Origin: Candidatus Levyibacteriota bacterium
Lineage (GTDB): Bacteria > Patescibacteriota > Microgenomatia > Levybacterales > UBA12049
Direction of reading: 5' to 3'
NCBI GenBank assembly: GCA_963790825.1
Contig: CAWBPM010000002.1
Location: forward strand, 618,815 to 682,814
DNA: 64,000 bases
The notes under the pieces were generated by a model that worked only from the letters and a program-made list of their open reading frames with translations, had not been told where the DNA came from and ran no database searches. Positions 6,893 through 62,559 of this stretch are shown one piece after another. Within the stretch, counting starts at the first letter, position 1; every line of letters begins with the position of its first letter. A program made the position numbers and the translations under genes.

Positions 6893-6993
6893 ACTAAAAA
6901 TAGAGTATAGAGTGTTTTTCCTCTGAATTCAATGAGCGAGAGATAATACTTGACAAATTATCAAGAATTACCGATCATAGATAATGAGAGCTT

Positions 6994-24112: not shown

Positions 24113-24134
24113 CGATTAGAAATTAGCAATTCTC

Positions 24135-30034: not shown

Positions 30035-30300
30035 TAATATAAATAAATTCTTCTATTGAGTTTCCTTTGTATTTTTTCGCAGTCATTCCCGCTCCAATCA
30101 AACATTCTTCCAGGCTTAATTCGCATTCCAAACGACGATTATTTTATAACATCAACGAAATTTAACGTCTTTCATAATAACTTTCAGATCTTTACTTGTG
30201 ATTTTGAATTTTAAATTTTAAATTTATTCGATAGGTCTCAAGAAAAAATGCAGAGGAAACGAAAATAATTAGGTTAATTTTTAATTTTGAATTTTAAATT
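30029..30300. repeat. Mosaic intergenic repeat, copy B (module 1 at 30046-30082, D-like module at 30082-30099, module 2 at 30232-30274, TRAATTY heptamers at 30197-30225 and 30276-30300)
   Basis: Module 2 is 36/36 identical to 24070-24105. Module 1 is about 90% identical to 23951-23989. Confidence 0.7.
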
Positions 30301-41726: not shown

Positions 41727-42251
41727 TTATTCGTTTAAATGAAATGTTTTAATTATTTTAGCTGGGGTCAGGCCGTCCCCTTTGATAAGAGAAATATTGT
41801 CGAAATTAGAGGTTATATGGATATTCATTCTTTCTGCTTCTCCGTAACCTTTTTCAAATAATTCTTTGTTAAAAACATTATTCTCTTTTCCAAAATAGCC
41901 AAGCGTTATATGAGGGCTAAATGGAATATCAGTTTGGAGATACGGAGCTAATATTCCAGAATACAATTTCTCATGCAGATTAACTATTTCTTCATCCCCT
42001 TCTTTAACTTGAAGAAAAAGATAGTCGTCAAAAGATTTTATTAAACCGCTTAAAACAATTGGGAAAGGTTTTACTTCTTTGCTAATCCTTTCAACATGCT
42101 CAGCAAGTTGGTTTTCAGAGATATCTGATACAGGAAAAACTATTGTTATATGCGGAGGAATTATCTTCCAACCAGGATCATATTTTCTCCTAAACTTATC
42201 AATCGCATTTGAATTTATTTTTGGAAAATATACTACAGCGAGTTGTTGCAC
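41727..42251 (-). CDS. 2H phosphoesterase superfamily protein (LigT / 2'-5' RNA ligase-like)
   Basis: Two H-x-T-x motifs in the two halves (HITIVF and HITLGYF), 174 aa. Confidence 0.7.
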   Translation of the reverse strand: MQQLAVVYFPKINSNAIDKFRRKYDPGWKIIPPHITIVFPVSDISENQLAEHVERISKEVKPFPIVLSGLIKSFDDYLFLQVKEGDEEIVNLHEKLYSGILAPYLQTDIPFSPHITLGYFGKENNVFNKELFEKGYGEAERMNIHITSNFDNISLIKGDGLTPAKIIKTFHLNE

Positions 42252-42329
42252 TCATACAGTATAGCAAAAGTTCAAATCTGAGTTGGAGCTTTTACTGGCA
42301 AGCCTGGGTTCGAACAAAGCAGGAGGCCA

Positions 42330-42385
42330 CTATCTTTCCGAATCCAAAAACGTACACTTGTACCCATTTGATTCGCCCTTTTCTT
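42330..42385. repeat. Partial duplicate of the folA 3' coding end (direct repeat of 44456-44500)
   Basis: AAAAACGTACACTTGTACCCATTTGATTCGCCCTTTTCTTCA versus AAAAACGTATACTTGTACCCGTTTGATTCGCCCTTTTCTTCA, 40/42 identical and in the same orientation. Confidence 0.75.
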
Positions 42386-42430
42386 CAGCTACTACTTTTT
42401 AAAATATGTTATGCTATAGAGAGTTACCCT

Positions 42431-43834
42431 ATGAAATATATTGTCTTTACTTTTGACGGATCAGGCACTCCTGTTGCTCAGCATCTGCAGATGGAAGGCC
42501 AGGATGTAGTACTGGCTCTAGTCCAGAGTATGAGTAGCCTAGCCGCTCCGGGTGATGATATCTATATGGAGGGACGAAAAGATAAGGAGGGTCGTCTTTC
42601 TGTGTTTGACGGTATTGTGAAGAAAAAATCAGCAGAAGAACTTCTGAAAGAAATGAAAACATATAAGAATCCTCAGGATTATTTCGTATTTTTTGACACG
42701 AATGGATTATATGCACTTGCGGAACAAATCAAAGACTTAGGTTTCCATGGTAATTTCCCAACTCACGAGGACTATTTATATGAAATGGATCGAGATAAAG
42801 CCAAAGAATTTGTCAAAAAATACTACTCCAAATTACATATTGCCCGGAAGAAAGAATTCGCCAAAGTCGCTGACGCGAAAAAATTCTTAGCGAATACCGA
42901 TGAGGTCTGGGTGTTAAAAGCGAACAGTGAGTCGTTAACTGCTTTTGTGCCCAGTGTTGATGATCCGATTCTAGCCTCCCATGCGGTAATTGAAGTTTTA
43001 GATAAAGACGCAGCTTCTTATGAGTCTGAAGGATTCATCCTGGAAGTACTTATCCCCTCTGTTATGGAAGTTACTCCCGAAAAAATATATTATGACGGTG
43101 AACCGGTCGCTACATGTATAGATATTGAGAACAAACCAATTGGCAGTGGAAATATTTCTGTTCAAACCGGCTGTGCTGCGGATCTTGTTTTCCCTATTGC
43201 TATGGAAGAGAGGATTAATCAGATTGCCTTTCCGCCGATTGTTGATGAACTGGCTAAAAAGCATAAAGGGTTATTTTACTGGGATGCGTCAATTTTAATT
43301 AATAAAAGAGACGGAAAAATGTATTTTGGCGAATTCTGCCCTAACAGACCGGGGTACAATGCTATCTTTACTGAATTTGCCCAGTGCGGTAGTGTGCATG
43401 AATATTTCGAAAATATAGTCCAGAAAAAAAATCCATTTACTTTAGGGACTGTCGCGTCCTCTATTAAAATATTTAATTTACACAGGGATAATGATACCCA
43501 ACAAATACTCGGCGGACTAACAGTCGATTTCGCGCCGGAGGTTGAAAAGGATATTTGGTTATGGGATGCAAAGAAAAAAGGAAAAAAACTTGTCAATACC
43601 GGTTATGGCGATATTATCGCTGTTATTACCGGATCTGGAACATCTGTTGAAGAAGCAGTCAATAGAATGTATCGAAATTTAGAAAAATTTTCTTTCCTCG
43701 ACGCGTATTATCGTCCGAAAGCGGATTTTCTGTCGCTTGGATATTCGACTTCTATTCTCAATCGCCTCAATTACGGTATGGATCGGGGATTATATCAAAT
43801 ACCATTTAATGTAAAAGTTGGAGATATCCTGTAA
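42431..43834 (+). CDS. ATP-grasp superfamily enzyme (PurD-like); start taken at internal MKYIVFTFDGSG
   Basis: N-terminal pre-ATP-grasp Rossmann-like segment MKYIVFTFDGSGTPVAQHLQMEGQDVVLA resembles the PurD N-domain. The central region is consistent with ATP-grasp. The family assignment is tentative. Confidence 0.45.
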   Translation: MKYIVFTFDGSGTPVAQHLQMEGQDVVLALVQSMSSLAAPGDDIYMEGRKDKEGRLSVFDGIVKKKSAEELLKEMKTYKNPQDYFVFFDTNGLYALAEQIKDLGFHGNFPTHEDYLYEMDRDKAKEFVKKYYSKLHIARKKEFAKVADAKKFLANTDEVWVLKANSESLTAFVPSVDDPILASHAVIEVLDKDAASYESEGFILEVLIPSVMEVTPEKIYYDGEPVATCIDIENKPIGSGNISVQTGCAADLVFPIAMEERINQIAFPPIVDELAKKHKGLFYWDASILINKRDGKMYFGEFCPNRPGYNAIFTEFAQCGSVHEYFENIVQKKNPFTLGTVASSIKIFNLHRDNDTQQILGGLTVDFAPEVEKDIWLWDAKKKGKKLVNTGYGDIIAVITGSGTSVEEAVNRMYRNLEKFSFLDAYYRPKADFLSLGYSTSILNRLNYGMDRGLYQIPFNVKVGDIL

Positions 43835-43847
43835 AATTCTTAACCGT

Positions 43848-44285
43848 TTATCTTACTTTCCAACGTTTTGTTTGTTTTTTAACTTCTTTATTTTTTTTAG
43901 AATTTACTTTTACTTTTGCACTATAGATAGCTTTTTGACACTCTTTCCAATCCATTCCCATATTCTCAATAAAGTGTTTCTCTATTGTATTGGCCATGCG
44001 ATGATATTTACGATACAGCTTATATTCCTTCTTGTGTTTTTCTGAAGCTTCATAATCAGTATCAAACGCGTCAATCATCTCTACCGGAATCCCGGCCGAT
44101 CTGATTAAGCTGTACTCAATAAATTCATGCAGCATAATACCATTGTTGATAATGGGATTTTCCATATCGTAAGAGATAATTGTTGTGTCAAAGTAGTCTC
44201 CCACGTCATCATAACGCATCGACTTAAATATTTTAAACTTAAGCTTAGAGTAATCTATCAGTTTGTCCAGAATTTTCTGTTTCAT
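43848..44285 (-). CDS. hypothetical protein (145 aa)
   Basis: ORF track. Confidence 0.4.
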   Translation of the reverse strand: MKQKILDKLIDYSKLKFKIFKSMRYDDVGDYFDTTIISYDMENPIINNGIMLHEFIEYSLIRSAGIPVEMIDAFDTDYEASEKHKKEYKLYRKYHRMANTIEKHFIENMGMDWKECQKAIYSAKVKVNSKKNKEVKKQTKRWKVR

Positions 44286-44444
44286 AGACAGTAATTATAG
44301 CGCAATAACAGCCTTTAGTAAAGTACGGAAACCTGAGGCTAAAAAGGAGAACAAGGTATTAATTTGAACATAAACTATACTCACATCTCGACGACACCTA
44401 TCATTCTGTAAGCTTATAGTTTAGGAAATTTTTATAAGAATATT

Positions 44445-44939
44445 TTATTTTCTCAGGTCTAAAAACGTATACTTGTACCCGTTTGATTCGCCCTTTTCTT
44501 CATACGCGATTTTTGTAAATATCTTTTTATATTCCGGGAAAAAGGCGTCGCCATTGATCGTCGTATGGACAATCGTTAAATAGAGTTTATCGGCAAACGT
44601 AATTGCCTGCTTAAAAATCTGTCCGCCGCCGATGATGAAAATCTCCTGTTTTTCATAATGCCAGGCGATTTCAATTGCCTGTTCTAAAGAATTTGCCGTT
44701 GTCGTATCCGCGTTTCCGACAAATAACCCAGATGTGTGCGTAATAATAATATTTGTTCGCCTTGGGAGAGCTTTTCCGATCGATTCATACGTTTTCCGTC
44801 CCATGATAACGACATGGCCGGAAGTAAGTTTTTTAAAACGTTTCAAATCCTCAGGAATATGCCAGGGAAGTTTATTCTCTTTCCCTATCACCCGGTTTTC
44901 AGAAAGTGCTGCAATAAGACTAATTTTCGGCGTATTCAT
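44445..44939 (-). CDS. folA: dihydrofolate reductase
   Basis: ISLIAALSENRVIGKENKLPWHIPEDLKRFKKLTSGHVVIMGRKTYESIG, GGGQIF, 164 aa. Confidence 0.9.
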   Translation of the reverse strand: MNTPKISLIAALSENRVIGKENKLPWHIPEDLKRFKKLTSGHVVIMGRKTYESIGKALPRRTNIIITHTSGLFVGNADTTTANSLEQAIEIAWHYEKQEIFIIGGGQIFKQAITFADKLYLTIVHTTINGDAFFPEYKKIFTKIAYEEKGESNGYKYTFLDLRK

Positions 44940-44972
44940 TTTTATATATTGCTTAATTTTGCGTTTGCTTAG

Positions 44973-44998
44973 TGTTTTTTCGCAATGACGAATGTTAC
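44973..44998. repeat. Intergenic repeat core GTGTTTTTTCGCAATGACGAATGTTAC (family of 23976-24002)
   Basis: 23/27 identical to copy A. Confidence 0.5.
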
Positions 44999-45140: not shown

Positions 45141-45839
45141 TTGTACTATTCTTCCGAGGTATTTACTACATTTAATATAGAATCGTTTAATTCTTCATCT
45201 CAATTTTCTAACCCCGATTTAATCGGGACTCATTCTAAACAAAACGCACCACCGCCATTGCGCGTTTTGATCGTGGATAACTATTCAGAACAGCTTGATC
45301 ACCTGCATCAATTATTAGCAGGACACAGCCTGGAAGTGGTCACGGCAGCCCACGTCTCTTCCGAGAAAGCTTCAGAAAAAGATCTTATCATACTTTCAGG
45401 CGGAGGAAAATATTCCGTTGCGAAATATGCTAATACAGTTTACCGAAAAGAAATCGATTTAGTCAAAAACGAAACAGTCGATGTCCCGATTCTAGGAATT
45501 TGCCTGGGTCTGCAAATAATTGCCTATGCATATGGATCATTACTCATACCGCTTCCTAAGAAACGAAAAGAGACTATTACTATAACTATGGAACAAAATG
45601 AACCGATTAGCGGTAATCGAACAGAAGCTAAAGTTTATGAATGTCATCGCTGGGCCGTAGGTCTAACTGGAAATGAATTAGAGATACTTGCCACTTCCGA
45701 AGACGGAGTGGAAATTGTCAGACATAGCCAAAGATTGACGTATGGTGTACAATTCCATCCAGAAACCACTGCGAAGAGTGCAGATGGCAAAATAATTTTT
45801 GACAACTTTTTACAGATGATTCCGAGAAGAGCTATATAA
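45141..45839 (+). CDS. class I glutamine amidotransferase-like protein
   Basis: GICLGLQ nucleophile-elbow Cys, HRWAV, and VQFHPE His/Glu region (TrpG/PabA/GuaA-type triad). Confidence 0.65.
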   Translation: MYYSSEVFTTFNIESFNSSSQFSNPDLIGTHSKQNAPPPLRVLIVDNYSEQLDHLHQLLAGHSLEVVTAAHVSSEKASEKDLIILSGGGKYSVAKYANTVYRKEIDLVKNETVDVPILGICLGLQIIAYAYGSLLIPLPKKRKETITITMEQNEPISGNRTEAKVYECHRWAVGLTGNELEILATSEDGVEIVRHSQRLTYGVQFHPETTAKSADGKIIFDNFLQMIPRRAI

Positions 45840-45891
45840 TAATTAAAAGAGGGTAAGCGAGGAATGAATTTACTTAATAAAAGAGCGCGAA

Positions 45892-45918
45892 GTGTTTCAT
45901 TTTCGCAGAATGTAAGCG
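45892..45918. repeat. Intergenic repeat core GTGTTTCATTTTCGCAGAATGTAAGCG (family of 23976-24002)
   Basis: Shares TTTTCGCAGA..GAATG and a GGTAAGCGAGGAATGAAT segment with copy A. Confidence 0.4.
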
Positions 45919-45964
45919 AACTGCGTATTCAAGAAAATGGAATACTTCGTGATATTTTAATTTA

Positions 45965-46750
45965 TTGTTCCAAGCGAATTTTCAAACTCTAAATTATATG
46001 CAAGTTACACCGTATAAAACGAAAAAAGTTCGGGTCGGAGACGATTTATACCAGATTCTGGATCGTTATTTGCCAGATCTTCACGAAAAAGACGTCGTCG
46101 TCATTACTTCCAAAATCGTGGCTATTTGCCAAGGACGAGTGGTGAAAAATGATGGTAGTATCAATAAGCTTGACCTCATGAGAAAAGAAGCTCAATTGTA
46201 TTTACCTGAACGACATATTCGTCATGGTATCCATCTGACTATTACTCACGATTTATTTATCGCCAGCGCCGGCATTGACGAATCCAACGGCAACGGCTAC
46301 TTTATTCTCTGGCCGAAAGATATTGAAAAAACAGTGAACGAGATTTGGCGTTATCTACGCCGTAAACATGAGTTAAGACACTTAGGTGTAATCATCACCG
46401 ACAGTCATTTATCACCACTTCGAAGAGGAATTACCGGACTCGGAATTGGCTGGTGTGGATTTCAAGCATTGACCGACTATATCGGTAAACCCGATATTTT
46501 CGGCAGACTGTTAAAATTTACCATGACCAACCTACTCGATGGATTGGCTGCTTCAGCAGTTTTGCTGATGGGAGAAGGATTTGAGCAAACACCTTTATCG
46601 GTTATTTCAGGTACGCCGTTTCTTCAGTTTCAAAATCGCGTCCCGACGAAGAAAGAATTGGCTTTTATGAAAATAGCAATAGCAGATGATGTTTTCGGCG
46701 GATTAATCGACAGTGTTCGGTGGTCCAAAGGCGGTCAGTACGAAAAATAA
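45965..46750 (+). CDS. CofE-like gamma-glutamyl ligase family protein (F420-0:gamma-glutamyl ligase fold)
   Basis: VIITDSHLSPLRRGITGLGIGWCGF matches the CofE core IITDT.GR..R.G..G.AIG..G. DESNGNGY resembles the CofE metal/nucleotide loop. Confidence 0.5.
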   Translation: MFQANFQTLNYMQVTPYKTKKVRVGDDLYQILDRYLPDLHEKDVVVITSKIVAICQGRVVKNDGSINKLDLMRKEAQLYLPERHIRHGIHLTITHDLFIASAGIDESNGNGYFILWPKDIEKTVNEIWRYLRRKHELRHLGVIITDSHLSPLRRGITGLGIGWCGFQALTDYIGKPDIFGRLLKFTMTNLLDGLAASAVLLMGEGFEQTPLSVISGTPFLQFQNRVPTKKELAFMKIAIADDVFGGLIDSVRWSKGGQYEK

Positions 46751-48441: not shown

Positions 48442-49515
48442 TCAAGACCTTGATTGGGCTGGGGTGATAAGTACCAGTTGAGGAGTTAATGTAGAAGCAT
48501 ACTCCAATGGTGTTTTGTAGTCAAGGGCTTGATGAGGGCGAATGCTGTTGTATTTGACTAACCATTCTGTTAAATCAACATTCGCTTCCGCTATGTCATC
48601 AAGCCCTACCTCTGAAAAATCGAGCCATTCTCTCTGCACTGTATGATTAAATTTTTCAAGACACGGGTTGTCTTTTGGGGTATGTGGACGAGAAAATATT
48701 TGTTGTATTGATAATTGTTCACAGGTATCTGAAAAGTGTTTCGCAAATTCTGATCCATTGTCTGAGTGTATGACTGACAATTTGTTCTCACTGAGGTATC
48801 GTAACCTCCTGAGAAAATCTGCGCCATTTTGTGATGAAGCTGTTGGATACACTCTTGCAAACCCAAGTTTTGTTTTATCATCCAAAGCGGTAAATATTAC
48901 TCTCCTTTGTCCATACCACCAGATAAGGATACTGTCGGTATGCCACAGTCTTCCCGGTTCCTTCATTGTGTGGATACGAATCCGTGGCTGTTTTGTCTTT
49001 CCTACCGTGTAGACTCGCTTCTTTTTCTTCTCTTGAAATAACTTGTGCTTTCGTATGACTCGTTCTATCTTCCAGGTTGTTATCTTCTGGTTATACCTGT
49101 TCTGATAAAGTACTTTCAGTTTTTGTTTACCTAGTTCCATGTTTTCTTTTCGAAGGATAATAATTTGTTTTTCTTCTTTTGCCGTTACCATCCATTCCCG
49201 TACCCTCTTGGGTCGCTTTGATTTCTCCTCTAAACAATATGCATTACTCCTGTCAAACCGTTGTACCCACCGCCTGAGACATTTGCGTGAAATCCCAAAA
49301 TGGAAAGCTGTTGTTGTTATATTCTCTTTCCCAACAGTATAATAGAATGCAATCCACTCCAATCGTAATCTCCCGTCGGAGGATATTCCTTCTTGTTTTG
49401 CCTGATAGCGATAGTAATCCCAGAAGTTCTCTTTTCCTTTTTGTATATCCCTCCATGTTTGGTACGTCCACGGATGGGCTGATACTGGCTTATGTGCTTT
49501 CGTTTTCATAGTCAC
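48442..49515 (-). CDS. IS481-like DDE transposase (HTH + rve integrase core)
   Basis: 357 aa. N-terminal HTH (FGISRKCLRRWVQRF) and DDE core with WHTDS...HSDNGSEF...RPHTPKDNPCLEKFNHTV. Confidence 0.85.
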   Translation of the reverse strand: MTMKTKAHKPVSAHPWTYQTWRDIQKGKENFWDYYRYQAKQEGISSDGRLRLEWIAFYYTVGKENITTTAFHFGISRKCLRRWVQRFDRSNAYCLEEKSKRPKRVREWMVTAKEEKQIIILRKENMELGKQKLKVLYQNRYNQKITTWKIERVIRKHKLFQEKKKKRVYTVGKTKQPRIRIHTMKEPGRLWHTDSILIWWYGQRRVIFTALDDKTKLGFARVYPTASSQNGADFLRRLRYLSENKLSVIHSDNGSEFAKHFSDTCEQLSIQQIFSRPHTPKDNPCLEKFNHTVQREWLDFSEVGLDDIAEANVDLTEWLVKYNSIRPHQALDYKTPLEYASTLTPQLVLITPAQSRS

Positions 49516-49620: not shown

Positions 49621-50616
49621 TTATACTGCTGCTACGTTTTTTCCTTCGTAGAATCCGCCGGCAACAGTCAGTTCCGCTTTAATCAGAGGATGTGGGTCAT
49701 AATTTTCCAGCAGTACATGTTCGGGTTTAATATCAGCCAAAGTTTTAACACTCGGATCGATAGTAATTGTCGGGAAAGGTTTCGGTTCACGTTTCAATTG
49801 TTCTTTTACTTGCTCAATATGATTCTCATAAATATGCACATCACCATACGAATGAATAAACTCGCCCGGTTCAAGATTTAATATTTTGGCCAGAATTACT
49901 GTCAAAAGTGCATAAGAAGCAATATTAAACGGAACACCTAAAAACAAATCGCAGCTTCTTTGATACAAAATCAGAGACAATTTTCCGTCCCGATTACTTA
50001 CCTGATACATATTGTGGCAAATCGGAAAACGGGATGCATTTTCAGAATCAGCCATCGTATAGAGATATTCCGGATTCCATGAATTGACAATAGCGTTATG
50101 AGCATTCGGATCCGCTTTCAACTCGTCTATTACCCATTGCAGCTGGTCGATGGTCCGGCCGGTCTTAGTCGGCCAGCGCCGCCACATTTCGCCGTAGATA
50201 CGCGGTAATTCTCCCCATTTGTTGGCAAATTTATCATCGGTTGCGATTTTTTCGATGAATTCTTCTTTCGTCATCACCGGTAAAACTAAATCCTCGACCA
50301 CTTTTTTATATGTTTTGTACGGATAGTCATCCCAAATATGTACATTGTTATCAACTAAATATTTTATGTTTGACCGTCCTGACATGAACCAAAATAGTTC
50401 GTACAAAACACCTTTCCAATAAACTTTTTTCGTAGTTAACAGAGGAAATCCTTGGGACAGATCGTATCTGGCTTGCTTACCGAATAAGCTGTATGTTACG
50501 ACACCTGTTCCGCGGTCGACTTGTTTTATGCCGGTATCTAAAATTTCCTGGAGTAAATTGAGGTATTGATATTCTAGATGATTTCTTTTAACTATTTTTA
50601 CCCCATTAGATTTCAT
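49621..50616 (-). CDS. thyA: thymidylate synthase (ThyA, long form with insertions)
   Basis: FPLLTTKK, LPICHNMYQ...LILYQRSCDLFLGVPFNIASYALL (catalytic Cys and dUMP-binding region), 331 aa. Confidence 0.9.
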   Translation of the reverse strand: MKSNGVKIVKRNHLEYQYLNLLQEILDTGIKQVDRGTGVVTYSLFGKQARYDLSQGFPLLTTKKVYWKGVLYELFWFMSGRSNIKYLVDNNVHIWDDYPYKTYKKVVEDLVLPVMTKEEFIEKIATDDKFANKWGELPRIYGEMWRRWPTKTGRTIDQLQWVIDELKADPNAHNAIVNSWNPEYLYTMADSENASRFPICHNMYQVSNRDGKLSLILYQRSCDLFLGVPFNIASYALLTVILAKILNLEPGEFIHSYGDVHIYENHIEQVKEQLKREPKPFPTITIDPSVKTLADIKPEHVLLENYDPHPLIKAELTVAGGFYEGKNVAAV

Positions 50617-51509: not shown

Positions 51510-52517
51510 TCAGGATCTCTTTTCGCTTTCATCTGCTAATTTTACCAATTCATTATATTGCTCACCTATTTGAGTAATCGCAAAAGGACTATCTTTTCTG
51601 CTTTTCAATTGATAAATAGTGACAGGTAACGTCGTAATGAGTTCTGCAAGTTTTACTTGAGATGTTAACGTATCTTTTTTATTATCAGTATTAACTTCTG
51701 TAACGATCGGTATCCCCCCGACTTCGTCTACCTGTGAAACCCCGGCTTGCAAATCAGCCCTGTTATACGCATGGACTGCCATATCGACATTTTGTATCTG
51801 AATGCTCTGGTTAAGAAGCGCTGTTATATACTGCCCAAATTGCTGGTAATGAATTGACGGTCCTGAAATGGCAGCCAGAATTGGCGTAACCGGACGGCTG
51901 AGATGAAGAGATTTTAAAACAGCCAGAGTCTCTTTCGTAAAATAAGCAAACGTATCATAATTTTGATCCCACCAAAAGTTCGACTCATTCGGTTCATTCC
52001 CTATTTCAAGCCATTCCACGCTTTTATGCTCAGTAATCGCCAGGAGATCCAATTTTATGAATTCTTTAATTTGGGTTTCATTTTGCTTAAGTTCCGAAAC
52101 TGTCTTGGGCATTGAGTGAATAAAACGAAGGACCGCACCGTTATCGACAAATGTGTAAAAAGGAAGCTCTCCGGGATCATAACAGAAAATTACTTTTTTA
52201 TTTTCTTTATCTGCCTCGGTCAGTTCTTCTTCAACCTGAGGATTATTTTCAAAAGTACCATCTACACTGACCAGAGAAGTAGGACTGCCGATTCGCAAGG
52301 TATTAATATGCAGTTTATCTGTCCCTTCTATCATTGACTGTTCAGAAACACTAACACCTATTCGTGAGTCATAGCTTGTTGTAGTTGTTTGAGAAGCAGA
52401 AACAGTTTCGGACGGATGAGGAAAACCTGTAGAATAGAAGGTAGAAGACAAAAGAGCAACAGATCCTAATATTTTTCTTATTTGGTTCCTAGGCTTTAGT
52501 TTTTCAACCTGCGCCAT
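51510..52517 (-). CDS. secreted glycoside-hydrolase-like protein (clan GH-A-like, NEP motif)
   Basis: N-terminal signal-like segment ILGSVALLSSTFYSTG. WLEIGNEPN is a typical catalytic acid/base motif of GH5/GH-A TIM-barrel enzymes. Confidence 0.45.
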   Translation of the reverse strand: MAQVEKLKPRNQIRKILGSVALLSSTFYSTGFPHPSETVSASQTTTTSYDSRIGVSVSEQSMIEGTDKLHINTLRIGSPTSLVSVDGTFENNPQVEEELTEADKENKKVIFCYDPGELPFYTFVDNGAVLRFIHSMPKTVSELKQNETQIKEFIKLDLLAITEHKSVEWLEIGNEPNESNFWWDQNYDTFAYFTKETLAVLKSLHLSRPVTPILAAISGPSIHYQQFGQYITALLNQSIQIQNVDMAVHAYNRADLQAGVSQVDEVGGIPIVTEVNTDNKKDTLTSQVKLAELITTLPVTIYQLKSRKDSPFAITQIGEQYNELVKLADESEKRS

Positions 52518-52550: not shown

Positions 52551-52636
52551 ATAACCAATAACCAATAACCAATAACCAATAACCAATAACCAATAACCAA
52601 TAACCAATAACCAATAACCAATAACCAATAACCAAT
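52551..52636. repeat. Heptanucleotide microsatellite (ATAACCA)x12 in divergent promoter region
   Basis: Twelve perfect tandem copies at 52551-52634 plus a partial AT, lying between the start of the minus-strand GH-like gene (52517) and the start of the plus-strand Cys-rich protein gene (52679). A TTGACA lies immediately downstream at 52643-52648. Confidence 0.95.
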
Positions 52637-52678: not shown

Positions 52679-53440
52679 ATGAGGCTCTTCGCTAAATTGG
52701 TAATCTCGTTTTTTGTTTTTACGTTATTTATTTTTAATCCTCCTAAGATGTTCGCAGTTACTGCTCCCCCTATTTGTAGCGCAGTGACCGCGTTTAATCT
52801 TACCTGTTCTCTTTCGGGTACAGCTACGTTTACAGCTTCTTGGGATTTATCTGCATATGGAGTACCAGCAGCTAGTAATATTTGCAATATTTATGTTTAT
52901 GCTGGCAGCAATGCCCATACTATTAGTCATACGTGTGCTGGCAGCAATGTTAGCATTACGGTTCCTGCTGATAATTCTCCGACTGTTTCAATCTACGTAA
53001 GCAATGGAATTATTGGTGATGTATGTTATAATGCTCCTCAAGGCACCATAAATAATGCTTGTGCTCCTCCCACTGCTACACCAATCCCTGCTCCTACTAC
53101 TCCCCCTGTTAACATTTATGCAGGCTGCGAAGGCAGCGCGGCAGACAACGCGGCTGACGTCTGGAAGCTAGATTGTATTCCTGTTGTCGCAGGACAACTG
53201 GTTAATTATGCTCTCATTTTCCTAGGAATCGTCGCGGTTATATTTATTATCTATGCGGGCTACAAGTTTATTACTTCCCGCGGTGATCCGAAGCAGGTTG
53301 AAGGAGCCAGAAAAATTATTACTTACGTTCTTATCGGCATCACGATTATTTTACTTTCATTCTCTATTATAGCCTTCATTGCATATATTACGGGCGTAAC
53401 ATGTATCGATGGCTTTAGTCTACATGCATGTAACACGTAA
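52679..53440 (+). CDS. secreted Cys-rich protein with TrbC/VirB2-pilin-like C-terminal hydrophobic hairpin
   Basis: Signal peptide, then a 150-aa Cys/Thr/Ala-rich region (10 Cys) with a PTATPIPAPTTPP linker. C-terminal LVNYALIFLGIVAVIFIIYAGYKFITSRG...IITYVLIGITIILL has two TM segments with a short basic loop, as in TrbC/VirB2 pilins. Confidence 0.45.
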   Translation: MRLFAKLVISFFVFTLFIFNPPKMFAVTAPPICSAVTAFNLTCSLSGTATFTASWDLSAYGVPAASNICNIYVYAGSNAHTISHTCAGSNVSITVPADNSPTVSIYVSNGIIGDVCYNAPQGTINNACAPPTATPIPAPTTPPVNIYAGCEGSAADNAADVWKLDCIPVVAGQLVNYALIFLGIVAVIFIIYAGYKFITSRGDPKQVEGARKIITYVLIGITIILLSFSIIAFIAYITGVTCIDGFSLHACNT

Positions 53441-54132: not shown

Positions 54133-57100
54133 ATGCAATTTTCCTTGATAAAATTTTATCCAAAAAGCTTGCACGTTTTCCGTATTTTCTCTACTCGATT
54201 TCTCGGAGTTTTTATTGCTTTGCTATTATTTCAAGCTACTAGTCCGGTTCAAAAAGCTTATGCGCAATATGCTGGCAATTTATTACAAAATCCATCGTTT
54301 GATACTACTTCACCTAATTGGCCTTCTCCTTGGTATATGTCTGTTTATCCTGATGCTGCTGCTACGGTAACTCAGGATATGTCAACGTATGTTGATGGAA
54401 ATTCCTCCGCACGAGTCGATATCAATACAGCCAGTCCGACCTTTTGGCATATCCAGCTACTGCAAACCGATGTTCCAATATCTCAAGGCGTTTCTTATAC
54501 AATCACCTTTTGGGCTAAGGCAACAACAGCTCGTACTATCAACGTTGTTGATCAAATGGGACTCTATCCCTATAACTCTTATTTCAGTCAGGATATCGAT
54601 ATCACTACCTCATGGCAACAATATACAATTACATTTACTGCTCCCGTAAATGACTCGCGTTCTCTTTTTACTTTTAACATAGGACTGCAAACCGGTAGTG
54701 TTTGGTTCGATGCTACGTCATTCCACTTTACTCTGCCTGATGATTATTGTTATGGACAAGGTGTCTATTTATATACCAACATAAATTGGACTGGTGCGTG
54801 TGCTAGATTTACTGCTGATACTCCTGATTTAACCAGTAGCATAGGCAACGGCACTGCTCAATCCGTTAGACTTGTAGGTGACTACGCTGCGACATTGTAT
54901 TCGGGTACAAACTATACTGGATCATCAAGCGCAGTTACTTCCGATGTCGCTGATCTTAGTACCACTGATGTTGGTCAAAAAGCTGTTTCTTCATTACAAA
55001 TTGCCGTACCTACTCCGACTCCTACTATACTTCTTGCACCTACAGCTACTCCGAGCGGCACAACTTACTCGATTACCGGAAATGTTTATAATGATCTTAA
55101 TAAAAATGGCGCGAAAGATTTAAGTCCGACATGGCAACAACTTACCAGCACCGTTACTGTAGATTATAACGACAGAACCAGTCTGGGAATTTCTGTTATC
55201 ATGGAAGGCGCATCCGGTACAGATTCGTTTCAAGTAGATGATATTTCTTTACAATTGGACAGCGGCCCAAATCTAATCACCAACCCCGGGTGTGAGGCAG
55301 ATACAAGCGACTGGGCTGGAACGCAAGCAACTCTTTCACAAGATACGACAGATTTTCATTCGGGTAGCGCGTCTTGTAATGTTCAGCAAACTACCGGAGA
55401 TCAATTTTCAATAAGCGACCAACCGGCTACTGTAAGTAATCCTCCGATGGGACAACAATATACAGCTACTGTTTGGGTCCGTACCGATTCATTAAATAAA
55501 CCGGTTTGGCTGTCTATAACAATGTCCGGTGGAGCCAATCCTGACGTAACTACGTATAGCCCAGCATTTGCTATGAACTCTAGTGAACCGAACTACAGCG
55601 GAGGAGCTGTTATTCAGTTATCAGACGGAGAGCAAACGGTTACCGATGCGAATGGAAATTATGCTTTTAATAACGAGCCATCCGGAACATATACGGTATC
55701 GCTTGCCTCGACAAGTATTTATACCCCGACTACATCCTCTTCTCAAACAATTGATCTGACAAGTGGCGACCAAACTGTTAACTTCGGATTGTATTACACC
55801 AGCTATACTTTGGCGGGGAATGTATTCGTCGATACCAATGACGATGGAGTTCAAGACGGAAGCGAAACCGGTTTTCCCGCAGGAACTGTTACCATTGCAG
55901 GTCCTGTATCCAAACAAGTAACTACAGATTCAGCTGGAAATTATTCGATACCTAATCTTCCTACCGGTATTTATATTGTCCAATATGCATTACCGTTTGG
56001 TTATACAACATCCACGACCAATCCGGTTACGATAAGTCTGGTTGCCAATACCATAGTTAATTTCGGACTTTCTCCATATACTCCTGCAGTCCTTACCAAC
56101 TCATGTGGTGCTGCTGCTCCCGAAGCAGATATCATGCTTGTTCTTGATTCTTCCGGTTCAATGGGTGAAGGAAGCAAAATACATGATGCCATAGCAGCTG
56201 CACAAAGTTTCGTTGATACGGTTGCAAGTCAACACCCTGCAAGCCAGGTGGGATTAGTAACATATAGTACCACCGTCCATATTGTAGATCCATTAATGCA
56301 AGACCATGGTGCTAACCAAACAAAATTAGATCATGATTTGGGAACTGCTGTAGCAGACGGTACTACATGCGGTTTATGTGCTATGCAAGAAGCAGTTAAT
56401 CAGCTCGAAAGTGGACACCATGGTAACGATACGAGAGTAATTGTTTTTCTTACTGACGGAATCGAAAACTATTTGCCGGGAGGACATGATCAAGTCCCTC
56501 CGCAAACAGCTCAGGATCCGATTTTGGCTCTGGCAGATCAAGAACATAATGATCACGGAACGAGCTTCTTCACGATAGGACTGGGAACTGATGTTGACGC
56601 AAATTTCCTGCAAAAACTAGCTGACGATACCGAAGCGAAATATTACTTCACTCCTACTTCCGATCAACTAAATTCGATTTATGCCAGTATTTATTATGAA
56701 ATTACTCAGGGTGTCGGCCAAGTCAAGGGAACTGTGTATAAAGATGTTAATTTTAACCGCCGCTTAGATGCAGCTGATCTAGGACTGCCCAGTTGGATTG
56801 CCACCTTAAGCAATGGAACAACCACTTATACGCAAGTGACAGATGTATCCGGAAATTATACTTTCACCGGTATTTGTACCGGCGCATATACCTTGCAGGA
56901 GCAAGCACAACCCGGCTGGTTTCAGGACAGTCCGAGACACCCAAGCAACTATGCCATTAATGTCCTTAACAGTTCAGCCATAACCAAGAAAAACTTTGGT
57001 AATACCCAAGGATATACTGTAGCTGGTTTTGTTTTTGACGATAGAAATAAAAATCAAACTTTCGATTCCGACGAAACAGCATTTACGAGCGGACTTGATA

Positions 57101-58233
57101 TTACATTTACACCTACCAACGGCACTACTTCGACTGCCGGATCAGTGGTATATGATACCACATCCGGACAATACACTGTTCAGGGTTTATTGCCCGGATC
57201 ATACATAATTTCTTACTTAGGGCCTTTACCTGTCCACTATTTCCCTGTCTATCCGGTCGGTGCCCCTTTCCCGTCGTATGTTGTCACTGTCGGTCCCGGC
57301 TGCAGCGTTGACGGCACAACAGGAGGTAGTTGTGATCCTGCAGGTAGTATTTCAGATTTGGATTTCGCAATCAGCGATTCAACTCCCTGGATACAAATAC
57401 GAGGTTTAGACGGCAGATTCGATAATGGTTACGAAGATAAAATTCCTCCCGGTATTACGGCAGCTTGCGGACCATATGAAGCAGTTCCCCAATCTTCAAT
57501 TCCTCCGGCTACTCCCGGAATTATTTTCTCAGGTGACCAGACAAGTTTGTTTGACTCGGGATCATCATCTACTACCGGTTGGGTTGTCGGTGGGCCGACA
57601 TATCCGGAAGTATTTACCCCTAAAACTGCCGGCGTAATGAAAACTTCTTATAATTATCTTCTGAGTCTTGCTCAACAATCGAACGTACCAATTACCGATC
57701 TCTCAACCATTTGCAATCTGAGCAATTGTACTTTGCCTAACGGTCTTTCACACGGAGTTTACCAATCTAACGGTGATCTTACGTTAAATAGCTTTATATT
57801 CCAAGGAAATAGTAATTATGTCATATTGGTAGCTGGAAACTTACATGTTATGGGAAATATCCAAGTAACTTCCGGTAGTACTGCCATTTTTTCTGTTGGT
57901 AAAGATATTATTTTCGATAAAACTATCGGAGATCTTAATCCTATTTGTCCACCGACGTCTTCTCATATCGAAGGCTTATACAGTAGTGATCAGAACATCA
58001 TAATCGACGGTAATGACAATTGCGTGGTTGGTCCGGATAATATGCTAAACGTTCAAGGCGCATTGGTCGCCAATGCCGGTTCCACAGGCGGTTCGTTGCT
58101 TTTGCATAGAGATCTCTGCGGAAATAATTTTATTGGCCCGGCTTTAACTGTTACCCAGCGGCCTGATTTTATTCTAAATGCTCCTGATTTTATTAAGCAG
58201 CAAAACTATTTTTTCCAGGAAGTCGCCCCATAA
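54133..58233 (+). CDS. giant secreted surface protein: CBM4/9-like carbohydrate-binding modules + Cna-B/SdrD-type repeats + von Willebrand factor A domain + C-terminal beta-helix-like region
   Basis: Signal peptide FLGVFIALLLFQATSPVQKAYA. NLLQNPSFDTTSPNWPSPW...ITFWAKATTARTINVV is CBM4/9-like, and a second such module follows (GPNLITNPGCEADTSDWAG...VWVRTD). Repeated GNVYNDLNKNGAKD, GNVFVDTNDDGVQDGSETG and GTVYKDVNFNRRLD segments are SdrD-B/Cna-B-like. The vWA MIDAS motif is IMLVLDSSGSMGE...T...VIVFLTDG. Confidence 0.7.
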   Translation: MQFSLIKFYPKSLHVFRIFSTRFLGVFIALLLFQATSPVQKAYAQYAGNLLQNPSFDTTSPNWPSPWYMSVYPDAAATVTQDMSTYVDGNSSARVDINTASPTFWHIQLLQTDVPISQGVSYTITFWAKATTARTINVVDQMGLYPYNSYFSQDIDITTSWQQYTITFTAPVNDSRSLFTFNIGLQTGSVWFDATSFHFTLPDDYCYGQGVYLYTNINWTGACARFTADTPDLTSSIGNGTAQSVRLVGDYAATLYSGTNYTGSSSAVTSDVADLSTTDVGQKAVSSLQIAVPTPTPTILLAPTATPSGTTYSITGNVYNDLNKNGAKDLSPTWQQLTSTVTVDYNDRTSLGISVIMEGASGTDSFQVDDISLQLDSGPNLITNPGCEADTSDWAGTQATLSQDTTDFHSGSASCNVQQTTGDQFSISDQPATVSNPPMGQQYTATVWVRTDSLNKPVWLSITMSGGANPDVTTYSPAFAMNSSEPNYSGGAVIQLSDGEQTVTDANGNYAFNNEPSGTYTVSLASTSIYTPTTSSSQTIDLTSGDQTVNFGLYYTSYTLAGNVFVDTNDDGVQDGSETGFPAGTVTIAGPVSKQVTTDSAGNYSIPNLPTGIYIVQYALPFGYTTSTTNPVTISLVANTIVNFGLSPYTPAVLTNSCGAAAPEADIMLVLDSSGSMGEGSKIHDAIAAAQSFVDTVASQHPASQVGLVTYSTTVHIVDPLMQDHGANQTKLDHDLGTAVADGTTCGLCAMQEAVNQLESGHHGNDTRVIVFLTDGIENYLPGGHDQVPPQTAQDPILALADQEHNDHGTSFFTIGLGTDVDANFLQKLADDTEAKYYFTPTSDQLNSIYASIYYEITQGVGQVKGTVYKDVNFNRRLDAADLGLPSWIATLSNGTTTYTQVTDVSGNYTFTGICTGAYTLQEQAQPGWFQDSPRHPSNYAINVLNSSAITKKNFGNTQGYTVAGFVFDDRNKNQTFDSDETAFTSGLDITFTPTNGTTSTAGSVVYDTTSGQYTVQGLLPGSYIISYLGPLPVHYFPVYPVGAPFPSYVVTVGPGCSVDGTTGGSCDPAGSISDLDFAISDSTPWIQIRGLDGRFDNGYEDKIPPGITAACGPYEAVPQSSIPPATPGIIFSGDQTSLFDSGSSSTTGWVVGGPTYPEVFTPKTAGVMKTSYNYLLSLAQQSNVPITDLSTICNLSNCTLPNGLSHGVYQSNGDLTLNSFIFQGNSNYVILVAGNLHVMGNIQVTSGSTAIFSVGKDIIFDKTIGDLNPICPPTSSHIEGLYSSDQNIIIDGNDNCVVGPDNMLNVQGALVANAGSTGGSLLLHRDLCGNNFIGPALTVTQRPDFILNAPDFIKQQNYFFQEVAP

Positions 58234-58292
58234 AAAAAGCTTGCCTCTTCCTTATTGACAAGTTTGCCATAGTTTATTACGCTAATGTATAG

Positions 58293-61244
58293 ATGGAAAA
58301 TTCTACCGATCCTGTCGCGCGTATACCACGAAGTAAGGCAAGAATAGTAAGTATACTCTTCTTACTTCTCTTGGTTATTGCTATTCCGTTAACGGTTATT
58401 ACCTTGCAGCACCGTCAGGAAACCAGACAAAGGGCAAGTACTACGTCTATTCCCGCCTTCGTTCAAGAAAATGAAAATAAAATAACTTCCGGAACAACGG
58501 TCAGTACGACCTTTGCCAAACCAAACACTGCAGGTAATCTGATCGCTGTCTATGTGCTTTGGAACAACGCTGGGACAGCTTCGATAAAAGACAGTTTGGG
58601 AAATACCTACACCAGCGCAACTGGCCCTTTGAGTTGGAACAATAACACCTGGAGAGGACAGGTCTTTTACGCCAAAAATATCTTAGGTGGCTCCAACACG
58701 ATTACAGTCACCTTCTCGCAAGGTGTCACTTCTTTTGGCATTATGTATACACATGAGTATTCCGGCCTTGATCCTGCCAATCCTATTGATGTTACCCAGG
58801 GAGCAATTGGTACGTCTTCAGCTATGAGTAGCGGATTGGTAACGACAACCAATGCGAATGATCTTATCTTTGGAGCCGGAGCTTCAAGTGCAGGTATAAC
58901 CGCTGGAGAAAGTGGCTTTACTGTCAGAACAACTGGATATGGCAATATGACAGAAGACGAAGATGTGACTAATACCGGCTCGTATGCCGCAACAGCAACT
59001 CAGAATAGTGTTGCATGGATTATGCAAATGGTTGCTTTTAAAGCAGCTAGCACCACGCTTTCCCCAAGTCCAACTCTCGCCACAGGAACAGCTGGTGTTT
59101 GCAGTACAAATGCACCGGTTGACGTAGTTTTGCTTGTTGATACCTCTGGAAGTATGTCTGAGCCGGCACAATCTGGATCAACAGCAACAAAGATTACACA
59201 ACTAAAACAAGCAGCCACAAGCTTTGTTAACGGTGCTCTTGGACTAGCAAATAATAATTATGAAATAAGTCTTGTATCCTTCACAGATAAAGCAACCATA
59301 CTTTCAGATTTCACCAATAACGTCTCGACCTTAACATCCGACATAAACTCATTACAAGCAACGAACACCACCTGCACAGAATGCGGGGTAGACGCTGCTA
59401 ACCAAGAAATAACCAATCATGGCAGGAGCAATGTAAAAAAGGCTGTCATACTTCTAACCGATGGATTTGCAAACGTAATCGAAAAAACAGCCGGAAATTA
59501 CACAAGTTCAGTTGACCCTGCAAGCTGTACTGCAACTCAAAATAATGATAAAGCTTGTACGCTTGCTGAAACACCAACACTTTCATTAGTAACCACAGGA
59601 CACACTGCAAGCAATACAACATATTTTACAATTGGACTTGGCACAGCCGGAACTACAGTAAATCAAAACTTCCTCCAGCAAATTGCCGACAGCACGACAG
59701 GACAATACTATAACGATCCAACAGGAAACGATTTAACTAGTATCTATACCAATCTCCAAGAGGTCATAGGTCAAGGCGGCATAAGTGGTTTTGTCTTCAA
59801 TGATACCAATGCAAATGGCCAATACGATTCTACCGAAACGAAAGTGACGGGTAGAACTGTTACGCTCTCCTCAAGCGCGAGCGGAACCTCCACACAATCA
59901 ACCGTAACAGATGCGACAGGTGACTATTCGTTCGTTGGGCTATGTAACGGCAATTATACGATAACGGATAGCATTCCCTCAGGCAGCATTATTACCGACC
60001 CCAAGACAAATAACGGCGTATACATTGACACAATTACAAATGATCAAACAATCCCGAATCAAAACTTCGGAGAAGCAATAATTCCGACATCTACACCAAT
60101 ACCCACTCCCCCATCTGCTCCGGTAGTTACAATTAATGGTTGTATCACAGGACCTGTGAGTGGAACGAACAATTTAACCCTTTCCTGGAATGATAGTAAT
60201 GTCTCTTCAGTCAATATAGGGACAGACCCATCATATTCTACCTATTACGCTAAGAATGCTCCAGGAGTATTAAGCACAACAGCTCCCATAGGTTTTTTTG
60301 GGGGTAGCAGTAACGTCTCAGGATTACAACTCGTGCTTAGTCCTAATACCACTTACTATGCTACAGTTTGGGATGGAGTCACCAGTCAGCTAAGTAGTCA
60401 AGCTCCTTTCTCACTTTCTCTTTGCGCCACTCCAACTCCGACGGTAACATTAACACCGACACCAAAGCCGACGAATACACCCACTCCCACTGCGACTCCT
60501 GTACCGACGTCTACCCTAACACCCACACCCCGCCCGACGAATACACCTACTCCAACCCCAACTTTTACTCCTACACCTACTCCAAGACCAACCAGCACTC
60601 CGACACCTATTCCTACCGATACGCCCTTCCCAACCAGTACGCCGGTACCCCTAGCTACTACCCTTAATTTTACAGTGTTCCTCCACGGTATCGGAAACAG
60701 TGGAGATAATGCCAACCCGAATACTTTTTCTTTAAGTAATCACAGCCCGCTTCACCCGGAACGCCCAGCTACTATCGAAGTGTATGATAGTAATAATCAA
60801 CTCGTTAAAAGCACTACGGGTACACTCACGTACAGCAGTAATGCAGGAAATTTCACCGCCAATACTATTAGCCTAGGGACAGCATTTACTACCGGAGATT
60901 ACAATATTAAAATAAAAACAGATCGCTATCTGAAAAAATTAGTGCCGGGAATAGTACACATTACTGCCGGACAAAGTAATCTTGTACCAACGGTAACACT
61001 GGTTGCCGGAGATATTAACGGGGATAATAATTTAAATATCCTTGATTACAATACCTTGCTTGATTGCGGCTATGGAGCGTTTACTCCGCTTCCCATGACT
61101 GATCCGAACTCTCTTTATAACAGTGCTTCCTGTCAATCTCACCAGCCGTATGTGGCCAATGCTGATCTTAACGACGACGGAACTGTGGACTATACTGACT
61201 TCAATTTATTTGTCCGCGAGTTATCTGTACAAAATGGAGATTAA
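58293..61244 (+). CDS. membrane-anchored surface protein: lectin-like beta-sandwich + vWA + SdrD-B repeat + Pro/Thr linker + conserved beta module + C-terminal dockerin-type double EF-hand
   Basis: N-terminal TM helix [21 protein letters not shown]. vWA MIDAS motif [13 protein letters not shown]...[37 protein letters not shown] is SdrD-B-like. The (PT)n linker spans 60420-60660. The C-terminus [20 protein letters not shown]...[22 protein letters not shown] matches the dockerin calcium-binding loop pattern D.N.DG....D..L twice. Confidence 0.7.
60420..60660. repeat. Pro/Thr-linker coding repeats ([10 protein letters not shown]...)
   Basis: Degenerate tandem ACNCCNAC-type codon repeats. They generate spurious antisense ORFs at 60398-60715 and 60422-60667. 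Confidence 0.8.
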
Positions 61245-62559
61245 TAAAAAAAAAATTATTCACAAAGATGTATTCATAGGTTTGATTTTGGGACTTCTGG
61301 TTATTAGTATTCCCTTAACTGTTTTTATTTTGCAAAAATCACAGGAGAGCCGGTCTCGTGCTACTGCTGCTACGACCCTTTCTTTTATGCCCGCTTCTAC
61401 CCAGACCAGTCCGCTTCAGTTTACCGTGAATGATAGTTTTATACTTAATCCGACAATTAATCCCGGCACCAATTTAGTCACTTTGGTAAAATTGGAAATT
61501 ACCTATGATCCGTCTAAACTTGCACCGAACGGCGCGAATTCATTCGCGCCGAATACTGCAGCATTTCCGGTTATTACGCAACAGCCCATTTATTCCCCTG
61601 GGGTTATTCAAGTAATTATGGAAATCGGTAGCAACCCCACTAATGCAATTCAGACAACAACCAGCCTGGGTACGATTAGTTTTAATGCGCTTTCTCCAAC
61701 AACTTCGGGAACTCCGACACAGGTAGTTTATACAACTACTTCTGAAGTGCTTTCACTTGGCAGTAATGACCAAGCTGCAGAAAATGTGCTTTCTTCAACA
61801 ACTCCTGCTTTTATCGAAATCAATTCACCAATTCCGACTCCCACTAATACCCCTGTTCCTACATTAACTCCGACACCAACATTACTTCCGACGAATACTC
61901 CCACCCCAACACCTACCAGTACGCCGATTCCGACGGATACGCCTTTCCCGACCAGTACTCCGGTACCGTTGTCCACAGTCCTTAACTTCACTGTCTTTCT
62001 CCACGGCATCGGCAACAGCGGAGACAACGCTAACCCGAATACTTTTTCTTTAAGTAATCACAATCCGCTACATCCGGAGCGTAATCTCTCAGTTGAGATT
62101 TATGATAAGACAAATCAGTTTGTTTCTTCGTCTTCAGGAACTCTCGTGTTTGACGCGAATGCAGGAAACTTTAGCGCAAGTATTGATATGGGGACTGCTT
62201 TTTTGACAGGTGATTATAATATTTACATCAAATCAGATAAATATCTCAAGAAACTTATTCCCGGAATTCAAAAAATAACAGCCGGACAAACAAATACTGC
62301 AGTAGTAACAACGCTTATTGCCGGAGATATCAATGACGATAATACGCTTGATATTCTTGATTATAATGCCCTTTTAGATTGCGGCTATGGAGAAATAACC
62401 TCGCTTCCCATGACAGATCCGAATTCCGTATTTAATAGCGCGATGTGCCAAGCACACCAACCGTATACTATTAATACAGATTTGAATGATGACGGGATTA
62501 TTGATGCAACCGACTTTAATCTTTTTATTCGTGAACTATCTGTACAAAATGGAGATTAA
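61234..62559 (+). CDS. membrane-anchored cohesin-like + Pro/Thr linker + conserved beta module + dockerin protein (paralog 2)
   Basis: Start taken at [12 protein letters not shown] (ATG 61234-61236, overlapping the stop of the upstream gene). TM helix [21 protein letters not shown]. The N-terminal domain [39 protein letters not shown]...[10 protein letters not shown] resembles cohesin strands, including the YDP..L motif. The C-terminal 190 aa are about 85% DNA-identical to 60640-61244, including the dockerin repeats [20 protein letters not shown] and [22 protein letters not shown]. Confidence 0.65.
61835..61975. repeat. Pro/Thr-linker coding repeats in paralog 2
   Basis: [45 protein letters not shown]; spurious antisense ORF at 61728-62027. 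Confidence 0.8.

Follow-up and report, generated by a model that had tools for sequence, protein, structure and literature searches.

The locus described here raises the question of how the 3' end of an intact folA (dihydrofolate reductase, DHFR) gene came to have a second, diverged copy 2115 bp away, with a pair of conserved genes lying between the two. It is part of a 64,000-nucleotide (64-kb) stretch of DNA from a Candidatus Levyibacteriota bacterium of the Patescibacteriota, which is called the window below. The initial annotation had taken the arrangement for a two-gene insertion between attL/attR-like repeats, which is the hallmark of site-specific integration or of a duplicative rearrangement. 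We find that the repeats are genuine and that the stretch they enclose corresponds, as far as alignments tell, to a ~2.0-kb module that recurs in other genomes. Our preferred explanation, which we advance tentatively, is that this module came to lie at the 3' end of folA through ordinary recombination without an element-encoded integrase, in a Campbell-type or homology-facilitated illegitimate event in which the incoming DNA consisted of the module and a folA tail.

The folA gene (44445..44939, minus strand) codes for a full-length protein of 164 amino acids (aa) that matches Pfam DHFR_1 over profile positions 1-158 of 159 (E = 1.6e-56); the target gene was thus left intact beside the insert. 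The duplicated stretch consists of its last 19 codons. The functional tail at 44445..44502 (minus strand) reads EEKGESNGYKYTFLDLRK before the stop codon, and in exact register with it, at an offset of 2115, a left copy at 42330..42387 (minus strand) reads EEKGESNGYKCTFLDSER before its own stop, the two being identical at 48/58 positions. Each copy begins exactly at a folA-type stop codon. The duplication of the folA 3' end in direct orientation, previously put at 40/42 identities, is hence real and larger than claimed, with a core (42343-42387) that is 42/45 identical to the right copy and an inner 21 nt (42367-42387) that is fully identical to it. All 10 mismatches are transitions and are confined to the 37 nt nearest the stop codons, none falling in the inner 21 nt; under uniform drift such a one-sided pattern has P = 0.007. 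Extension of the alignment takes the repeat to 58 nt, from the stop codon to 42387/44502, and the alignment in register displays no similarity past the stop codons on one side or past these inner positions on the other. This pair of folA-tail copies is unique of its kind across the window. A local alignment of one flank against the other scores 38, as against 10.6 +/- 1.0 for shuffled sequences (z = 27), which rules out a chance similarity of the two tails, as the initial annotation had also held to be unlikely.

A repeat finder reported a longer pair (42343-42417 vs 44458-44532, spacing 2115, 80% over 75 nt). We do not accept its extension upstream of the core, translated as 'KVVA/NIF', as longer homology, given that 42402-42418 is a conserved promoter motif of the module and that the mismatches there are mostly transversions. 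An assembly artefact is likewise an unlikely source of the repeat, the two copies being short and diverged, and two Logan contigs (L001 and L126) match the window at 100% identity, an agreement that comes from the same organism and is thus not independent.

The identity of the left copy as a folA tail is supported by tblastn searches, in which 50 folA-family proteins match it with the very ends of their C-termini. Both tails finish much as the family does, in the form TFLDLE[KR] or TFLD-x-E/R-K/R followed by the stop. The left copy has no start codon and meets a stop at 42399-42401, four codons upstream; it is therefore a non-coding remnant, displaced or duplicated from its gene. No further folA fragments, for instance beside thyA, were recovered from the window by tblastn at E < 0.05.

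Between the two tails lie a gene on the plus strand (42431..43834) for an ATP-grasp ligase of 467 aa with the fold of PurD, the glycinamide ribonucleotide (GAR) synthetase, and one on the minus strand (43848..44285) for a conserved, all-helical partner protein of 145 aa, both at the coordinates that had been proposed for them. To define the boundaries of this module, the non-coding sequences on either side of the same gene pair at eight other loci were aligned with the window, and the conserved unit comprises 42379-44380 (~2.0 kb). What had been described as an ATP-grasp gene and a hypothetical gene bracketed by repeats is accordingly a conserved pair found in other contexts, and the alignments indicate that the repeats bracket exactly the unit conserved elsewhere. 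Its left non-coding region (42388..42430, plus strand) displays a promoter-like motif, AAATATGyTATGCTATA (42402-42418), that is conserved in the eight other loci. The right non-coding region (44286..44380, minus strand) contains the putative promoter of the 145-aa gene, TTTACT and TATAAT separated by 17 nt (44322 to 44294), which is the best promoter-like site there (10/12), and it is conserved in other loci up to ~44380. The module therewith appears to be self-contained, each gene having a promoter of its own. From its conserved end to the folA stop codon extends a 64-nt spacer (44381..44444) that has no counterpart in the other module loci and is unique to this genome.

At the left end of the module, the ATG of the 467-aa gene is preceded, at a distance of 39-43 nt, by a pyrimidine box, TTTTCTTCA, which is native at the same distance in two other loci, L088 and L091. 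Local alignments of the region upstream of this gene with L088, L089 and L091 all start at 42379, and the folA homology stops at 42387. The two overlap over 9 nt (42379..42387), where TTTTCTTCA forms at once the inner end of the homology to folA, with its EEK codons, and the start of the module-native upstream box; we infer that this overlap is a microhomology junction.

The cargo itself consists of old genes. A model of the 467-aa protein, obtained with AlphaFold2 (AF2) from 30 homologues, has a pLDDT of 86.8, and in a Foldseek search of the PDB its top matches are all GAR synthetases (E = 1e-21 to 1e-19, 13-17% identity). Against the purD model TIGR00877 of NCBIfam it reaches 25.9 bits (E = 4e-6) where the cutoff is 288, and thus misses the equivalog threshold, while Pfam returns only a faint GARS_C match. 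We regard it as a PurD-fold ATP-grasp ligase on the strength of the predicted fold, and assign no substrate. Its 525 homologues include proteins 78-91% identical in many Patescibacteria and others ~55% identical in Aquicella and further Gammaproteobacteria. The 145-aa protein, in which the motifs LHEFIEY and YHRMAN are invariant across the homologue alignment, has no family match in Pfam, PHROG, PADLOC or NCBIfam, and its single-sequence AF2 model, of low confidence (pLDDT 67), has no fold match. In more than 25 fetched loci its gene adjoins that of the 467-aa protein, the two being convergent in close relatives and co-directional in distant ones. The third-codon-position identity of the module is 43-60% at 78-91% amino-acid identity, and these are therefore old, strongly constrained genes and not recent transfers; together with the absence of any anomaly in guanine-plus-cytosine (GC) content, this rules out a recent horizontal transfer of the module among the sampled lineages. 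The suspicion of a deviant GC content that an inserted segment might arouse thus found no support in the module. A phage or plasmid origin was set aside as well, there being no copies of the module in the phage, plasmid and viral-contig collections, as was a role as defence or toxin-antitoxin cargo, for which PADLOC gave no matches. Tandem PurD-like paralogues, 46-72% identical to the window protein, occur in L092 (three, 1323-7404) and L108 (two, 2-2828), which indicates an expansion of the family in some genomes.

As a unit, the module is found in over 10 further loci of Patescibacteria and in varied contexts. Its neighbours are an acetyltransferase gene in L002, RibD_C and purine-synthesis genes in L003/L004, an adh_short gene in L005/L006 and a Fic-domain gene in L007. 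In L088 it lies 64 nt from the 3' end of a tRNA-Gln gene, and in L089 it follows a tRNA-Gln and a RibD_C gene, being one gene away from the former; the RibD_C gene of L089 holds the position that folA has in the window. RibD_C-type, DHFR-like reductase genes stand near the pair or adjoin it in several of these loci (L089 7940-8536, L003 7270-7866, L005 4200-4772 and L007 14953-15558, all on the minus strand). This recurrence of DHFR-family genes, folA here and RibD_C elsewhere, may, from gene order, reflect a functional link with the pair, and we take it as a lead on function that stands apart from the finding itself. At ~40 other module loci we found no folA-like fragment, the upstream tail-like sequences there not being significant (shuffle fractions 0.09-0.94), and significant flank repeats are absent at six of the eight other loci for which both flanks are available. 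The exceptions are L003, which has 26-nt direct repeats (6330-6355 / 10104-10129) around a larger segment with the module, a 3-dmu-methyltransferase-like gene and RibD_C, and L002, which has direct repeats of the 25-nt class (7911-7935 / 10348-10373; z = 5.4 vs shuffles) around a larger segment with the module and an open reading frame (ORF) of 99 aa; these could be att-like or regulatory sites.

We then consider the enzymes that might have moved the module. None of the ~48 ORFs of the window scanned with Pfam and NCBIfam is a tyrosine or serine recombinase, and the insert holds none, neither the PurD-like nor the 145-aa gene having an integrase domain. The earlier statement that no integrase lies inside accordingly holds, and the wider search for an integrase or att-like sequences, through these ORFs and the other module loci, yielded neither a recombinase nor a folA-like att. 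The proposal of site-specific integration is thereby divided: its geometry, an intact target with a displaced 3' fragment in direct orientation, stands, and a recombinase and a shared att to go with it were not found. In repeat searches the module ends showed neither inverted repeats nor, at either of them, a palindromic, attC-like site. A transposon or insertion sequence (IS) was rejected as the insert on the grounds that it has no terminal inverted repeats and no transposase inside, and that its diverged repeat of 58 nt greatly exceeds known target duplications in length; an integron cassette was rejected in view of two genes with their own conserved promoters and the missing attC-like site. 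The only recombination enzymes detected in the window are encoded by an IS481-family DDE transposase gene (48442-49515, minus strand; NF033577, E = 1.4e-53), which lies between thyA (49621-50616) and the folate genes, and a second, rve-type transposase fragment (26-694, minus strand; 24% identical in tblastn with the IS481-type protein) that runs off the window start. The IS481 transposase was dismissed as the agent, as it is 4 kb away, the module ends have no inverted repeats and the duplication is of the wrong type.

On its left side the insert adjoins a second remnant. The chromosomal flank there holds a gene for a LigT-like 2H phosphoesterase (41727..42251, minus strand; Pfam 2_5_RNA_ligase2, E = 1.5e-20), and between this gene and the folA remnant, 14 nt from the latter, lies an orphan 3' fragment of a tRNA-Gln(UUG), GTTCGAACCCAGGCTTGCCAG (42295..42315, minus strand), which comprises the T-loop, the 3' T-stem and the 3' acceptor strand and matches, at 19/21 positions, the tRNA-Gln gene beside the same module in L088. 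These 21 nt are the only match in the window with at most three mismatches, and 100 shuffles gave none. The T-loop-like motif GGGTTCGAAC that had been noticed just upstream of the repeat is thus real and belongs to this fragment, and the remark that no tRNA cloverleaf could be built was right, as only the 3' 21 nt are present; neither ARAGORN (0 genes) nor Rfam finds an intact tRNA in the window. In two relatives, L128 and L129, a tRNA-Gln gene lies ~1 kb upstream of the 2H-phosphoesterase gene on the same strand. Upstream of the latter gene, the region 4650-5925 of L128 (and likewise L129) contains the 3' end of a tRNA-Gln(CTG), AGTCCGGCAGC, three times (4977, 5204, 5912) around small inserts, and in L128 a tRNA 5'-like stretch (4656-4670) precedes a GIY-YIG ORF. 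Judged by these repeated ends, the region seems to have received insertions more than once, and serial insertions at a tRNA site are a pattern described for integrative elements (PMC7192596). The tRNA-Gln fragment of the window would then mark a hot spot of insertion on the upstream side of the 2H-phosphoesterase gene, with the folA remnant at the edge of the variable region.

In the event that we posit, the module would have arrived with a diverged folA tail next to it, the donor being either a small circle excised from a genome with the module beside folA or a linear fragment that was taken up. One crossover would have occurred inside the last ~20-45 nt of the tail homology, and the other junction would have formed at the 9-nt microhomology common to the Glu-Glu-Lys codons of folA and the module-native upstream box. 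folA would have stayed full-length, its last ~12-37 nt coming from the incoming copy, and the resident tail would have been displaced by 2115 bp to decay as a non-coding remnant just upstream of the module promoter. The site of this event would be the distal edge of the variable region anchored on the tRNA-Gln upstream of the 2H-phosphoesterase gene. We favour recombination through the folA tail over a dedicated integrase because neither a tyrosine or serine recombinase, in the insert and the scanned ORFs, nor a shared att was found, the inner junction has the 9-nt overlap and the mismatches are distributed in a step-like manner. In its favour we also count that the repeats are in register from both stop codons and enclose exactly the unit conserved in other neighbourhoods, that this unit is missing from phages and plasmids, and that the tRNA-Gln context is that of a hot spot. 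A junction that lies inside shared sequence is the outcome of microhomology-mediated joining and supports this proposal; the mismatch step fits a crossover between two diverged tails or alleles; and homology that ends exactly at the stop codons is as expected for orthologous coding tails with unrelated downstream DNA. One junction in extended homology (58 nt) and the other at a short microhomology (9 nt) is, moreover, the combination that defines homology-facilitated insertion.

Several points weigh against this explanation. The arrangement is documented in one organism only. Neither an empty site nor a donor arrangement was found among the folA and 2H-phosphoesterase homologues and their contexts, the nearest of which are too distant from the window, and it is therefore by inference that we arrive at the direction of the event and its pathway, as also at the identity of the resident tail. 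No other module locus has folA alongside, only RibD_C-type DHFR-like genes being present there, and the postulated donor arrangement was thus not observed. Furthermore, a homology of 58 nt that is near-identical over no more than 21-45 nt offers RecA-dependent recombination only a short substrate, and the identity of the inner 21 nt could have been kept by promoter function or gene conversion. Finally, two of the 10 differences alter the remnant non-conservatively where the family is invariant: a Tyr, at an aromatic position, has become Cys, and a Leu, at an aliphatic one, has become Ser. Part of the divergence is therefore decay after the event, which weakens the argument from the crossover step and keeps models of drift alive.

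Three other accounts draw on the same observations. In a classical site-specific integration, a tyrosine or serine recombinase acting in trans would have moved an integrase-less cassette or decayed element whose attP carried a folA-tail fragment that restored the gene, the 58-nt repeats being attL and attR. The geometry is exactly that of gene-restoring integrative elements, with their attP-fragment strategy and displaced fragments (PMC7192596), and to this may be added the block of 21 perfectly identical nt within the repeat, the location of the module of L088 at 64 nt from a tRNA-Gln 3' end, and the displaced tRNA-Gln fragment 14 nt off, which with the serial fragments of L128 is typical of integrase-driven tandem arrays. 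Nevertheless, we judge this account improbable: the insert and the scanned ORFs are devoid of an integrase, other module loci have neither a folA-like fragment nor a common att and for the most part (6/8) lack flank repeats, and phage or plasmid copies are missing. Moreover, the inner boundary is a microhomology native to the module and only ~13 nt from its promoter, which leaves no room for an attP arm. We give an equally low likelihood to the view that nothing was inserted into the present folA, and that the left fragment is instead the rest of an older folA beside the 2H-phosphoesterase gene, the body of which was replaced by an incoming module and another folA allele via an illegitimate left junction. 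No relative of the present folA exceeds 66% identity, and between this gene and thyA, its usual partner, stand the IS481 transposase and five genes, from which it follows that the region has been rebuilt; most of the 80 folA loci that were fetched have thyA and folA side by side. The 66% of the closest folA homologue comes from a search of 5.8 billion proteins; the closest homologue of the 2H phosphoesterase is 71% identical, and the contexts of the closest homologues of both (L127-L130) are not syntenic with the window. Homology that stops exactly at both stop codons is as it would be for two alleles, and a donor with module and folA adjacent is made plausible by the DHFR-family genes beside the module in L089, L003/L004, L005/L006 and L007. 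Yet only by chance would the incoming DNA have ended, on its left, at the conserved boundary of the module, the near-identical block of 21 nt (42/45), synonymous sites included, is unexpected for alleles with differences at 27% of the 37 nt next to it, and the window offers no further folA fragments.

The remaining account is one of duplication in situ: the module would already have been beside folA, a 58-nt copy of the tail would have been made upstream of it, and transitions would have accumulated later. Possible routes are a templated patch through microhomology-mediated repair or template switching at the pyrimidine box, a long target duplication, or a tandem duplication with later deletion. 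That all 10 differences are transitions suggests a recent common ancestry of the two tails and not long-diverged alleles, the remnant has degenerative changes at conserved residues, and the inner junction has the 9-nt microhomology. However, uniform drift fits the one-sided mismatches poorly (the P of 0.007 given above), an outer boundary exactly at the stop codon is unforeseen for a random templated patch, and the tandem route needs two extra deletions; further, to our knowledge, a 58-nt target duplication is far longer than any made by known transposases or casposases. The chance that we allow this duplication in situ is accordingly slim.

A bolder generalization, to which we attach the least likelihood, is that the PurD-like/145-aa pair constitutes an integrase-less mobile cassette of Patescibacteria that moves to the 3' ends of genes, such as the tRNA-Gln of L088, the DHFR-like RibD_C gene of L089 and folA here, and carries a copy of the target's tail with it such that the target stays intact. 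It could do so via host recombination or a hitherto unrecognized trans-acting recombinase tied to the tRNA-Gln hot spot. If true, such a cassette system would be distinct from both integrons and classical islands. A parallel notion, on the side of function, is that the pair might act together with DHFR-family reductases in a folate- or pterin-type pathway.

The wider neighbourhood of the locus is one of nucleotide and folate genes: a glutamine amidotransferase gene followed by a CofE-like gene (45141-46750, plus strand; TIGR04132 'putative folate metabolism gamma-glutamate ligase', E = 1e-89) is divergent from folA, and the other members are NDT-like, HAD and thyA genes and two dCTP-deaminase-like genes. 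Directly upstream of the folA start, at 44955-44985, is a weak third copy of the first block of a two-block non-coding repeat (31 nt at 94% and ~44 nt at ~98%), which is present at 23959-24131 and 30052-30293, just downstream of frr and glyA, and has no match in Rfam. Farther to the right, a perfect 7-nt microsatellite, ATAACCA x 12.3 (52551-52636), lies between an ORF on the minus strand (51510-52517) and a T4SS-pilin-like gene on the plus strand (52679-53440) and could be a phase-variable promoter tract. At 54133-62559 (plus strand) are genes for three large surface-type proteins with VWA, SdrD_B, CBM_4_9 and cohesin/dockerin-like domains, which have in common both internal Thr/Pro-rich repeats and repeats of 220-300 nt, at 69-75% identity.

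The locus illustrates, at the resolution of single bases, how a streamlined genome of Patescibacteria reshuffles its gene content without visible mobile-element machinery: an essential folate gene is kept intact and a two-gene module is placed in its tail, beside a decayed attachment-type site of tRNA-Gln. For annotation, its value lies in the recognition of a folA pseudo-fragment and a tRNA-Gln fragment. The module is in its own right a lead for enzyme discovery, comprising as it does a strongly conserved, uncharacterized PurD-fold ligase and a small partner, which keep 78-91% identity among genomes of ancient divergence and are also present in intracellular Gammaproteobacteria. As a whole this is a modest and largely ordinary case of genome plasticity, which does not overturn current understanding.

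Comparison with known systems helps to place it. As to the cargo, the ATP-grasp fold of PurD matches the 467-aa protein over its whole length, but the sequence identity is 13-17%, the score of 25.9 bits is far from the 288 demanded by TIGR00877, and the cargo gene is always paired with that of the 145-aa protein and often near DHFR-family genes. Phage 21 and e14, which reside in the 3' end of icd of E. coli, are gene-restoring integrative elements. Such elements restore a protein-coding target with a gene fragment stored in attP (PMC7192596). They resemble the present locus in that one end has the intact target and the other its 3' fragment, displaced, diverged and directly oriented, with the gene function kept and the homology extending over the coding tail; they differ in that here no integrase is found in or near the insert, which is 2.1 kb in length with two metabolic-looking genes, the cargo occurs elsewhere without an att fragment, and the junction lies in a microhomology native to the cargo. 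Islands and tandem arrays at tRNA genes are recognized by an intact tRNA and displaced 3' fragments, in the logic of Islander/TIGER (PMC7192596). The orphan tRNA-Gln 3' fragment beside the remnant, the serial fragments in L128 and the location of the L088 module 64 nt from tRNA-Gln are in their likeness, whereas in the window neither an intact tRNA-Gln nor an integrase was found and the bracketing repeat is the tail of a protein gene, not a tRNA fragment. Tycheposon-like cargo arrays are a further example of such tRNA-linked arrays. With the gene cassettes of integrons the module shares the character of a small, integrase-less unit in many contexts, but its two genes are convergent and each has a promoter of its own, an attC-like imperfect palindrome and IntI/attI are absent, and the flanking repeat is a sequence of the target gene. 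Lastly, homology-facilitated illegitimate recombination was reportedly described in naturally transformable bacteria by de Vries and Wackernagel in 2002. Relative to such Campbell-type insertion the anchor is unusually short here (58 nt, of which at most 45 are near-identical); what the two have in common is one homologous anchor, the folA tail, one 9-nt microhomology junction and no need for an enzyme of the element's own.

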